DNA of 64,000 nucleotides from Escherichia coli. Its GTDB lineage: Bacteria; Pseudomonadota; Gammaproteobacteria; Enterobacterales; Enterobacteriaceae. Both the position numbers and the translations under genes were made by a program. Positions within the stretch are counted from its first letter, which is position 1. Each line of letters opens with the position of its first letter. This document shows positions 8,717 through 12,269 of the stretch, in pieces. The stretch is from the NCBI RefSeq assembly GCF_003790525.1, contig NZ_CP033635.1, one strand, 5' to 3'. Under the pieces are notes generated by a model, which was given only the letters and a program-made list of their open reading frames with translations, did no database searches and was not told the DNA's origin.

Positions 8717-8770
8717 TGAGCCGCCCCGGGAATCCTGGAGACTAAACTCCCTGAGAAAGAGGTAAACAGA

Positions 8771-9097
8771 ATGACTAAAAATACTCGTTTTTCCCCCGAA
8801 GTCCGTCAGAGGGCGATTCGTATGGTTCTGGAAAGTCAGGGCGAATATGACTCACAGTGGGCGGCAATTTGTTCCATTGCCCCAAAGATTGGCTGTACAC
8901 CGGAGACTCTGCGTGTCTGGGTGCGCCAGCATGAGCGGGATACCGGAGGCGGTGATGGCGGGCTCACCACCGCTGAACGTCAGCGTCTGAAAGAGCTGGA
9001 ACGTGAAAATCGTGAACTGCGCCGCAGTAACGATATCCTTCGCCAGGCTTCCGCTTATTTTGCGAAGGTGGAGTTCGACCGCCTCTGGAAAAAGTGA
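8771..9097 (+). CDS. IS3-family transposase OrfA (HTH/leucine-zipper, IS629-like)
   Basis: 108 aa [55 protein letters not shown]... Confidence 0.85.
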
Positions 9098-9511
9098 TGC
9101 CACTGCTGGATAAGCTGCGTAAGCTGTACGGGGTCGGACCGGTATGCAGTGAACTACATATTGCCCCGTCAACGTATTACCACTGTCAGCAACAGCGACA
9201 TCATCCTGATAAACGCAGTGCCCGTGCGCAGCGCGATGACTGGCTGAAGAAAGAGATACTGCGCGTATACGATGGGAATCATCAGGTATACGGTGTGCGT
9301 AAAGTCTGGCGTCAGTTGTTACGGGAAGGAATCAGGGTAGCCAGATGTACAGTGGCGCGCCTCATGGCGGTTATGGGACTTGCCGGTGTTCTCCGGGGTA
9401 AAAAGGTCCGCACTACCGTCAGCCGGAAAGCCGTTGCCGCAGGCGACCGCGTAAACCGTCAGTTTGTGGCAGAACGTCCTGACCAGTTGTGGGTGGCTGA
9501 TTTTACTTACG
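9094..9511 (+). pseudogene. IS3-family transposase OrfB, N-terminal exon interrupted by a group II intron after ...QLWVADFTY
   Basis: Frame continues exactly across the intron into 11782 (..[20 protein letters not shown]..), the conserved IS3-family DDE region. Confidence 0.8.
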
Positions 9512-10332
9512 GTGTGCCCGGAGTTCAGGGCGGGCATGGATGCTTAAATGAACCGCGAGTCTGTCTGGAATATTGAACCGGTAACTCACGATGAGAAACC
9601 CAACAATCCCACCGGGTGTGACGGTGGAGAACCTGAGCGGCAGTGACCTGCGGCATGCCCGCAGGGTGATGTAACCCGCTGACAACGGGGATTGAGGCGA
9701 GATCACTAAGCCGAGATGATCCTCAAGGTTAAGTACTGAAAGGCTGAAGAACATGAACCCGTTAATCCGCCTCTGTGGGTTGAAAACGTCACCACGGCCT
9801 ACGTGATCTGACAGGCCGTGCAGGAGGAACTGGCAGTGATACGTAAGCACTGCCGGTCGAAGGTGTTTTGACATGTATGCGAAACACCGGGGCAGCAGCG
9901 TCTATCACGCTTGCATTGCTGACTTCTGCCAACTTGCGGCAAGCAAGGATAAAGAGTGCGACGGGCAGCCTCCTCAGTATGCCTGAGTCCAGGCCGGTAA
10001 ACCGGGGAAGGTCAGCGACGGATGTTAAGGGGGCATGGCTCCGATGACGCGCTGGCTGGCGGAGCTTCCGTAGTAGTCCGCGATGGGGAAAGCCCATTAC
10101 ATGGCGAAGGGAAGCAGTTTGAATGTGTTTGCGACGTGAATTAACTGACCTAACGAGGTGAAGACCTTTGATAATCAGCGAAATGCAACGCAAGCTTGCC
10201 ACATGGGCAGCCACCGATCCGTCCCTACGGATTCAACGGCTGCTGCGTCTGATAACACAACCAGAATGACTGGCTGAAGCGGCGCGGATCACGCTTTCAT
10301 CAAAGGGGGCCCATACCCCCGGCGTTGATGGC

Positions 10333-11691
10333 GTGAACAAAACAATGCTACAGGCCAGACTGGCTGTTGAGCTGCAAATCCTCAGGGATGAATTACTCTC
10401 AGGCCACTACCAGCCCTTGCCCGCCAGACGGGTTTACATCCCTAAAAGCAACGGCAAACTGCGACCACTGGGTATCCCCGCGTTGCGGGATCGTATTGTT
10501 CAGCGGGCCATGCTGATGGCGATGGAGCCGATATGGGAGAGTGATTTTCATACGCTCTCATATGGCTTCCGGCCTGAGAGCAGTGTCCACCACGCGATCC
10601 GCACGGTGAAATTACAGCTCACAGACTGTGGTGAAACCCGGGGACGCTGGGTGATTGAAGGCGACCTGTCCAGTTACTTCGACACCGTACATCATCGACT
10701 GCTGATGAAGGCTGTACGCCGCAGGATCAGTGACGCACGTTTCATGACTCTGCTGTGGAAAACCATCAAGGCGGGACATATCGATGTCGGTCTCTTTCGG
10801 GCGGCCAGTGAAGGTGTGCCACAGGGCGGTGTTATATCGCCGCTATTATCGAACATCATGCTGAATGAGTTCGATCAATACCTGCATGAGCGCTACCTGA
10901 GCGGGAAAGCCAGAAAAGATCGGTGGTACTGGAATAACAGTATCCAACGGGGCCGAAGTACGGCGGTCAGAGAAAACTGGCAGTGGAAACCCGCGGTGGC
11001 GTACTGCCGCTATGCCGATGATTTTGTCCTCATCGTCAAAGGCACCAAAGCACAGGCGGAAGCCATCAGGGAGGAGTGTCGGGGTGTGCTCGAAGGCAGT
11101 CTGAAACTCAGGCTGAACATGGATAAGACTAAAATCACCCATGTTAATGACGGCTTTATCTTTCTGGGGCACAGGATCATTCGCAAACGCAGTCGTTATG
11201 GCGAGATGCGAGTGGTCTCAACGATCCCGCAGGAGAAAGCCAGAAACTTCGCCGCATCGCTGACAGCACTGTTATCAGGCAACTACAGTGAAAGCAAAGT
11301 CGATATGGCTGAACAACTCAACCGAAAACTGAAAGGCTGGGCCATGTTCTATCAGTTCGTTGATTTTAAGGCCAAAGTCTTCAGTTATATCGACCGTGTC
11401 GTGTTCTGGAAGCTGGCTCACTGGCTGGCCCGCAAATACCGTACAGGTATCGCTTCCCTGATGAGGTGGTGGTGTAAATCACCGAAACCGGGTCAGAGCA
11501 AAACGTGGGTTTTATTTGGTAAAACCAATCACGGCAAGCTCAGCGGCGAAATACTGTACCGGTTGGTGGGGCAAGGCAAGAAGCTGTTCCGCTGGCGGCT
11601 ACCCGAAGGTAATCCCTATCTGAGGACGGAGACCAGAAACACGTATACATCGCGCTTTACAGAAGTGGCAATGGCGTTCGCCAGCATTTAA
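10333..11691 (+). CDS. group II intron-encoded reverse transcriptase/maturase (N-terminal region disrupted upstream)
   Basis: RT motifs including YADDFV (RT5) and maturase X domain; no endonuclease domain; upstream RT0 frame carries TGA at 10267-10269. Confidence 0.8.
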   Translation: MNKTMLQARLAVELQILRDELLSGHYQPLPARRVYIPKSNGKLRPLGIPALRDRIVQRAMLMAMEPIWESDFHTLSYGFRPESSVHHAIRTVKLQLTDCGETRGRWVIEGDLSSYFDTVHHRLLMKAVRRRISDARFMTLLWKTIKAGHIDVGLFRAASEGVPQGGVISPLLSNIMLNEFDQYLHERYLSGKARKDRWYWNNSIQRGRSTAVRENWQWKPAVAYCRYADDFVLIVKGTKAQAEAIREECRGVLEGSLKLRLNMDKTKITHVNDGFIFLGHRIIRKRSRYGEMRVVSTIPQEKARNFAASLTALLSGNYSESKVDMAEQLNRKLKGWAMFYQFVDFKAKVFSYIDRVVFWKLAHWLARKYRTGIASLMRWWCKSPKPGQSKTWVLFGKTNHGKLSGEILYRLVGQGKKLFRWRLPEGNPYLRTETRNTYTSRFTEVAMAFASI

Positions 11692-11696
11692 ATGGA

Positions 11697-11730
11697 GAGC
11701 CGGATGCGCTGAAAGGTGCACGTCCGGTTC
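11697..11730 (+). ncRNA. group II intron domain V (catalytic hairpin)
   Basis: GAGCCGGATGCGCTGAAAGGTGCACGTCCGGTTC, 34-nt hairpin with GAAA loop, immediately after IEP stop. Confidence 0.75.
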
Positions 11731-11781
11731 GGGGAGGAGAGGCAGGGAAATAGTCCGACTACGCCCTGCCTCTTACTCTAC

Positions 11782-12239
11782 TCTGGACGGGTAAGCGCTG
11801 GGCGTACCTCGCCGTTGTTCTCGACCTGTTCGCAAGAAAACCAGTGGGCTGGGCCATGTCGTTCTCGCCGGACAGCAGGCTTACCATGAAAGCACTGGAA
11901 ATGGCATGGGAAACCCGTGGTAAGCCCGTCGGGGTGATGTTCCACAGCGATCAAGGCAGTCATTATACGAGCAGGCAGTTCCGGCAGTTACTGTGGAGAT
12001 ACCGGATCAGGCAGAGTATGAGTCGGCGTGGAAACTGCTGGGATAACAGCCCAATGGAGCGCTTCTTCAGGAGTCTGAAGAACGAATGGGTGCCGGCGAC
12101 GGGCTATGTAAGCTTCAGCGATGCAGCTCACGCAATAACGGACTATATCGTTGGATATTACAGCGCACTAAGACCGCACGAATATAATGGTGGGTTACCA
12201 CCAAACGAATCGGAAAATCGATACTGGAAAAAACTCTAA
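11782..12239 (+). pseudogene. IS3-family (IS911-like) transposase OrfB, C-terminal exon / 3' part
   Basis: ...[27 protein letters not shown]...[10 protein letters not shown]...[15 protein letters not shown]... with DDE residues. Confidence 0.8.
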
Positions 12240-12269
12240 CTCGGTGGCCAGTTTTTGTTGACCACTTCA
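12234..12269 (+). repeat. IS911-like right terminal inverted repeat
   Basis: Reverse complement TGAAGTGGTCAACAAAAACTGGCCACC... matches terminus at 20588 (TGAAGTGGCACACTGAATTTGGCCACC...). Confidence 0.6.

Follow-up and report, generated by a model that had tools for sequence, protein, structure and literature searches.

A hybrid IS629/IS911 element of Escherichia coli joined across the group II intron E.c.I4, and its probable origin by recombination between intron copies

We analysed a window of 64,000 nucleotides of Escherichia coli DNA (RefSeq assembly GCF_003790525.1, contig NZ_CP033635.1), and in it the element that occupies positions 8717-12269. This element begins at 8717 with the left terminus TGAGCCGCCCCGGGAATCC and finishes at 12269 with the right terminus ...GTTGACCACTTCA. 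It consists of three parts, all on the plus strand: a 5' part of the insertion sequence (IS) IS629, the group II intron E.c.I4 and a 3' part of IS911.

The IS629 part (8717-9511) corresponds to nt 1-795 of a 1310-bp isoform of this element and forms the 5' exon of the intron. It contains the left inverted repeat, orfA, the frameshift region and the first 139 codons of orfB. By BLAST, it is 95.6% identical to nt 1-795 of the annotated IS629 of phage VT2-Sakai (L005:1201-2510), so that the resemblance to IS629 claimed for the upstream part in a first-pass annotation of this DNA is confirmed; with the isoform carried by pUTI89-type plasmids the identity reaches 99.5-100%. The left terminal inverted repeat, of 25 bp (8717-8741), has 2 mismatches with the annotated left-end repeat of the Sakai copy. 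Nucleotide 4 of the repeat (position 8720) carries an A-to-G change that, among the other six copies compared, is present only in L001, which is of the same type. orfA (8771-9097) encodes a helix-turn-helix transposase N-terminal protein of 108 residues (Pfam HTH_Tnp_1, E = 1.8e-12), and the ALIL pseudoknot, the programmed -1 frameshift element of the IS3 family, was recognized at 9052-9168 (Rfam RF01497, 111.7 bits, E = 2.8e-29). The translation of the orfB 5' segment (9094-9511) ends with ...W-V-A-D-F-T-Y, in which the first catalytic Asp lies three codons ahead of the intron site. We did not find the remaining 515 bp of IS629 with the right inverted repeat (nt 796-1310) anywhere in the window; the IS629 portion is therefore a fragment and not a complete IS629 member.

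The intron, of 2270 nt, extends from 9512 to 11781, as delimited by its boundary motifs, its domains V and VI and sequence identity. The boundary motifs (5' GUGYG and 3' AY) are present as GTGTG at 9512-9516 and as ...CTAC ending at 11781, and domains V-VI were detected at 11695-11781 (Rfam RF00029, 64.9 bits, E = 1.3e-11, for a gathering threshold of 40). Judged by its sequence, this intron is E.c.I4, because over its first 1764 nt it shares 99.5% identity with the ykfC segment of K-12 CP4-6, which is catalogued as E.c.I4-tr1 (Leclercq & Cordaux 2012, PMC3522654, Table S3). In addition, a 985-bp fragment on a pUTI89-type plasmid agrees with the catalogued E.c.I4-tr3, and the length of the window intron falls in the catalogued range of 2270-2271 nt. 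E.c.I4 homes to specific positions in IS629, IS911, ISEc16 and ISEc31 and, active as a retroelement in certain strains, reaches up to 15 copies that diverge by <1% (PMC3522654); its open reading frame belongs to class A and is devoid of the endonuclease (D/En) domain (PMC3552965).

In the window, the reverse transcriptase/maturase gene ltrA (10183-11691) is a pseudogene. Its codon 29 (10267-10269) is the nonsense codon TGA (W29*), with an A at position 10269, where the nine other aligned full-length copies have a G and read TGG; RefSeq flags an 'internal stop' in ltrA of the identical locus. In an intact LtrA homologue (L002), the only Pfam matches are RVT_1 (E = 1.4e-34) and GIIM (E = 1.3e-10); no endonuclease domain was detected. 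Over the 2270 nt, the window intron is 99.6-99.8% identical to the nine other copies, and the alignment of the ten contains about 20 variable sites, which are all located in nt 1-1118 except two single-copy indels. The A at 10269, an A at 9915, an A at 10579 that changes Arg to Ser in LtrA, and the A-to-G change at 8720 were observed only in the window-type copy among those compared; these four point changes are consistent with decay after inactivation.

We also identified a candidate exon-binding site 1 (EBS1), UGUGGGU, at 9774-9780. With G-U wobbles allowed, it pairs with the last 7 nt of both 5' exons (ACUUACG in IS629, ACCUAUA in IS911), and it is the sole 7-mer in the entire intron able to do so. 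As EBS1, this motif would plausibly account for the dual IS629/IS911 target. A common EBS2 pairing with both exon types was sought in the intron and none was found.

The IS911 part (11782-12269, 488 bp) corresponds to nt 767-1254 of IS911 and forms the 3' exon. It holds the 3' portion of orfB, with its stop codon at 12237-12239, and the right terminal inverted repeat. As the first-pass annotation had supposed for the downstream part, it is of IS911 type: by BLAST it matches the IS911 copy of p948, a plasmid of enterotoxigenic E. coli (ETEC), at 100% identity, and it is 98.1% identical to the K-12 'IS911B-1'. Directly past 12269, the flanks of different copies differ from each other. The left inverted repeat and the first 766 bp of IS911 were not found upstream of the intron. 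Apart from the 3' exon, the window contains a single IS911-type piece, 8.3 kb downstream at 20588-20922; it is 91% identical to the p948 type and represents a different isoform.

The passage from one IS to the other coincides with the intron. In a 50-bp sliding comparison, the identities to IS629 and IS911 are about 0.95 and 0.4 before the junction, and about 0.5 and 1.0 after it. A three-way alignment places the switch from IS629-like to IS911-like sequence at both intron boundaries, exact to the base, and when each half was aligned to the IS629 and IS911 references the identity break was again that of the intron boundaries. The element ends had been located exactly in the first-pass annotation, but its exon/intron border had to be corrected, since the 5' exon stops at 9511 and the intron begins at 9512.

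When 9094-9511 and 11782-12239 are joined, orfB measures 879 nt, is in frame and remains open, with no internal stop, up to the stop codon of IS911; the continuity of the orfB frame across the intron, noticed earlier, is thus verified. The Pfam domains HTH_21 and rve of the spliced product extend over the joint, and the predicted hybrid DDE transposase would have its first Asp (ADFTY) from IS629 and its second Asp and its Glu from IS911. Such a hybrid transposase would form only if the intron splices. The two termini were said not to be inverted repeats of each other, and indeed they have only TGA in common (TGAG... on the left, TGAA... on the right). The paired terminal inverted repeats of a transposition-competent IS3-family element were not found for 8717-12269, nor was a target-site duplication of 3-4 bp, as the flanking triplets are ACC on the left and TCT on the right. 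The 8717-12269 copy is predicted to be inert because of the nonsense codon in ltrA, the mismatched ends and the point change in the terminal repeat. In strain ET474, the 3.5-kb element is present at one place and no other chromosomal sequence matches any part of it, so no maturase is expected to be supplied in trans in this strain.

We searched for the hybrid in 5,426 complete E. coli genomes and found it at this locus in 34 of them, several at 100% identity. A count of 1,311 genomes, given by a whole-element search with at least 80% coverage, was rejected as a measure of the hybrid, since 86% of the query is matched even by an ordinary IS629::intron. Misjoins in short-read assemblies are classically caused by near-identical repeats such as this one of 2.3 kb, and reads of an IS629::intron and of an IS911::intron might have been joined across the repeated intron. 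We consider misassembly excluded for all practical purposes, because the same structure with the same right flank is carried by 34 complete genomes from unrelated projects; in addition, ET474 is devoid of any second sequence matching the 3.5-kb element.

Another explanation would be that the intron came later, into an IS3-family element that naturally had unlike ends or into an IS629/IS911 hybrid already formed at the level of the exons. In that case the conserved intron site would have remained a homing target, and the candidate EBS1 pairs with both exon types. Nevertheless, a probe of 326 bp across the spliced joint did not detect any contiguous intron-free IS629/IS911 joint in the 5,426 genomes; its sole full-coverage match was a two-piece arrangement in strain MS 119-7, described below. 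Moreover, the exons are only about 50% identical, and there is no long homology to put a crossover exactly at the intron site, and the target-site duplication is lacking. An invaded pre-existing hybrid is consequently very improbable. A single described IS3-family element with unlike ends can be ruled out, given that the two halves match separately labelled ISs and that no contiguous joint is present in these genomes.

We then examined which related arrangements exist. Both parental forms were retrieved, IS629::intron::IS629 (L012, L008b) and IS911::intron::IS911 (L010, L011). The reciprocal hybrid, with an IS911 5' exon and an IS629 3' exon, was detected at 100% probe coverage in at least 30 genomes, and the copy that was checked (L017) likewise changes from one IS to the other at the intron; elsewhere in the window, the reciprocal product was looked for and not found. 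Hybrids of the same polarity as that of the window are present at five or more other loci, on ETEC and other plasmids (L006, L007, L008a, L009) and in strain 55989, in its SHI-1 island (L018). Two IS911 isoforms are represented among their 3' exons, one with 100% and the other with 94.5-95.5% identity to IS911, so that the hybrids at other loci represent independent events. As would be expected of a deletion, the two flanks of the L009 hybrid are separated in pBS512_211 by about 1.4 kb of ISEc22, in whose place L009 has the hybrid. In L007, AAC is present on both sides of the hybrid, which could be a 3-bp duplication. Probes made of the joined flanks of L007, L006 and L009 did not reveal any contiguous empty site among plasmids. 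We rejected the AAC of L007 as a target-site duplication: no empty site is available, and such a match is expected by chance about once in 64 per locus while six loci were examined.

The right flank gives an indication of what was lost at the locus of the window. Immediately after the IS911 end lies, in inverted orientation, a 45-bp left-end remnant of another IS3-family element (12270-12314, minus strand), which is 97.8% identical to L007:2770-2814, a segment that precedes an IS3-family orfA. A group of plasmids of about 100-230 kb has this remnant in a 62-bp form that continues without interruption into the same hsdM gene, and this form is the empty site for IS911. The continuation of the remnant, expected to the left of IS911, is found neither in the left flank of the hybrid nor anywhere else in the window. 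The left flank is instead an IS1414 (IS256-like) transposase remnant without N-terminus (7924-8716, minus strand; open reading frame list and RefSeq annotation of the identical locus), which directly abuts the IS629 end.

These observations lead us to propose that the hybrid was probably generated by homologous recombination between two near-identical copies of E.c.I4, with deletion of the DNA in between. An IS629 isoform and an IS911 would have been present in the same orientation in one genomic island, each with a retrohoming copy of E.c.I4 at the homologous codon of orfB, just past the D-x-T-Y motif. Homologous recombination between the intron copies, presumably RecA-dependent, would then have joined the left half of IS629 to the right half of IS911, and would have removed the right half of IS629, the left half of IS911 and all the DNA between them. 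Around the site, the exons of IS629 and IS911 are only about 50% identical, whereas the intron copies share 99.6-99.8% identity over 2.27 kb. The break at the intron boundaries, the parental, reciprocal and recurrent forms and the lack of a target-site duplication fit with an intron-mediated deletion, to which the loss of the original left flank of IS911 also points. The suggestion that two related IS copies had recombined, possibly through homologous introns, is supported by these data; that the exchange occurred inside the intron, that host recombination was used and that a simple deletion took place rather than a complex series of events are three points that we infer.

Several observations weigh against this proposal. 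Using a synthetic locus probe (IS911 5' exon, intron, IS911 3' exon and 1 kb of right flank), an intact IS911::intron was found at this hsdM site in none of the 5,426 genomes, and the postulated IS629::intron upstream of the site is likewise retained in none; because no genome keeps the arrangement that preceded recombination, the two parents postulated here are hypothetical. Nor can the crossover be positioned, since no intron marker is diagnostic for one or the other parent: the variable intron sites do not follow the type of host, IS629 or IS911, and the recurrent variants at nt 700 and 1085 occur in IS629-hosted and IS911-hosted copies alike. In addition, the left flank differs among the 34 carriers, being IS1414, an IS66 tnpC fragment (AR_0085) or a third form (DLI.6n); further rearrangements therefore happened, and the order of events is uncertain. 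Finally, at the same locus in strain MS 119-7, a complete intron-free IS629 abuts the last 45 nt of the intron.

The third form of left flank deserves a comment. DLI.6n (L016) has the same hybrid and the same ltrA stop, with a different left flank from which IS1414 and the porin gene are absent. Several substitutions are found at 3996-4035, in the first 40 bp or so of its IS629 end. The left end of this strain points to a further rearrangement there.

The arrangement of MS 119-7 (L013, 1864-3706) comprises, in this order, IS66', a complete IS629, intron nt 2226-2270 (domain VI), the IS911 3' exon and hsdM, and it has both outer junctions in common with the AR_0085 form of the hybrid. It suggests a route in several steps, in which an IS629 would first have been located beside a 45-nt intron remnant and the IS911 3' exon, E.c.I4 would have retrohomed into that IS629, and recombination between the 3' end of the new intron and the 45-nt remnant would lastly have deleted the 3' half of IS629. 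The existence of the MS 119-7 form, with its two junctions, speaks in favour of such a route. Nonetheless, it requires about four events from a plausible ancestor, compared with two for a direct intron-by-intron exchange, it depends on only 45 bp of homology, and it cannot explain the independent hybrids and the reciprocal hybrids at other loci. Furthermore, the MS 119-7 form is as easily derived from the hybrid: IS629 could have inserted into domain VI of the intron, and recombination between the two IS629 sequences, which have a 795-bp repeat in common, could have followed. We thus regard the route in several steps as unlikely.

It was also conceivable that the intron itself had driven the exchange during its retromobility, with IS911 carrying the donor intron and IS629 as the target, for example by template switching of the reverse transcriptase or by cDNA-primed repair. 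The activity of E.c.I4 in some strains, with its numerous copies at <1% divergence (PMC3522654), would favour this explanation. So would the frequency of the hybrids and their existence in both polarities. On the other side, different chromosomal flanks are joined in the hybrid and the left flank of IS911 is lost, which is the signature of a crossover or deletion and not of a conversion tract, and nothing in the sequence requires an intron-driven exchange. Retrohoming in bacteria is generally independent of homologous recombination and occurs without co-conversion of the exons, which also counts against it. We hold this explanation to be quite improbable, and retain homologous recombination between intron copies.

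A hybrid of this kind has precedents. In the catalogue of E. coli introns, the entry E.c.I4-3a of strain 55989 bears the remark "the IS host is a chimeric IS629/IS911", and E.c.I4-15 of IAI39 is noted as "chimeric IS629/ISEc31" (PMC3522654, Table S2); the same paper records the 55989 hybrid without analysing its origin. Like the element of the window, E.c.I4-3a of the 55989 SHI-1 island is composed of IS629 nt 1-795, the 2270-nt E.c.I4 and a 488-bp IS911-type 3' exon, with 97.8% identity overall. Unlike it, the 55989 element adjoins pic and a type VI secretion gene, its ltrA is intact, and its 3' exon is 95.1% identical to the IS911 of p948 (100% for the window). Because of this other locus, the other 3'-exon isoform and the intact ltrA, the 55989 hybrid represents an independent event. 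The window hybrid is therefore a further instance of a recorded phenomenon and already known in kind; the present analysis adds that such hybrids are recurrent, exist in both polarities and were never found without the intron.

Comparison with better known systems is also instructive. The ordinary IS629 and IS911 interrupted by E.c.I4, such as those of pUTI89-type plasmids, of the yjhR locus of ST131 and of K-12 CP4-6 (IS911A::ykfC), have the same intron, the same codon and the same exon boundaries; the window element differs from them by its exons from two ISs, its unmatched ends and its lack of a target-site duplication. The proposed event resembles ectopic recombination between copies of ISs, rrn or Rhs, where long, near-identical direct repeats lead to a deletion and a single hybrid repeat remains, with the left flank of one copy and the right flank of the other; for group II introns ectopic recombination between copies is known in Wolbachia (cited in PMC3522654). 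Here, by contrast, the repeat would be nested in two non-identical mobile elements, and the scar would be an IS with mismatched halves.

IS/intron tandems of >3 kb were predicted to be especially prone to ectopic recombination and thereby to promote rearrangements (PMC3522654). The element of the window would be a clean example of this prediction, in which intron-bearing ISs serve as long recombination substrates that destabilize genomes, and such events would be recognizable from their scar, an IS whose halves do not match and that lacks a target duplication. For annotation, the two 'IS3 family transposase' pseudogenes and the ltrA pseudogene would have to be read as one recombinant relic of a past deletion in the island, and neither as three independent insertions nor as a new IS. 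By itself the element has limited significance and is ordinary debris of mobile DNA. A much broader reading, in which E.c.I4 would be a portable cassette of 2.3 kb of homology by which halves of different IS3-family elements are shuffled time and again, appears doubtful to us; it is based on the survey, with both polarities and at least six loci. If it were true, it would amount to an intron-promoted 'exon shuffling' between bacterial transposons, and if in addition the intron splices, some hybrids could encode working hybrid transposases, with the DNA-binding part and the first Asp of IS629 and the second Asp and the Glu of IS911, or could seed new IS lineages.

The hybrid belongs to an IS-rich genomic island that adjoins a tRNA-Ile gene and mug-rpoD (annotation from ET474, L001/L014). 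At 1-8716 and 20923-33000, this island contains a GH32/porin/kinase cluster for sugar utilization and nested fragments of IS1414, IS30 and IS66. It also contains an Ag43-type autotransporter gene and the CP4-type genes yeeS, yeeT and cbtA.

To the right of the hybrid, the region 12270-12341 is composed of the 45-bp remnant followed by a partial direct repeat (about 29 bp) of its terminal sequence, so that TTAAACCTGTGGCGATTCA is present twice. Then comes a type I restriction-modification module, with hsdM (12462-14921), hsdS (14928-16238), a DUF4268 gene (16248-17411) and hsdR (17426-20443). hsdM and its upstream region are also found on E. coli plasmids (about 100-230 kb), beside a truncated SPFH gene. 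In the window, the module is located between the right end of IS911 (12269) and the IS911 left-end fragment at 20588-20922; both IS911 pieces have the same orientation, and the whole resembles the inside of a composite transposon. The left-end fragment is 98.2% identical to the K-12 'IS911B', and this IS911B-type sequence (20588-20935) is interrupted after nt 335 by an IS30 end. In K-12 MG1655, IS30 breaks both IS911A and IS911B at the same position, which could reflect either a hot spot in IS911 or a common ancestry of the fragments.

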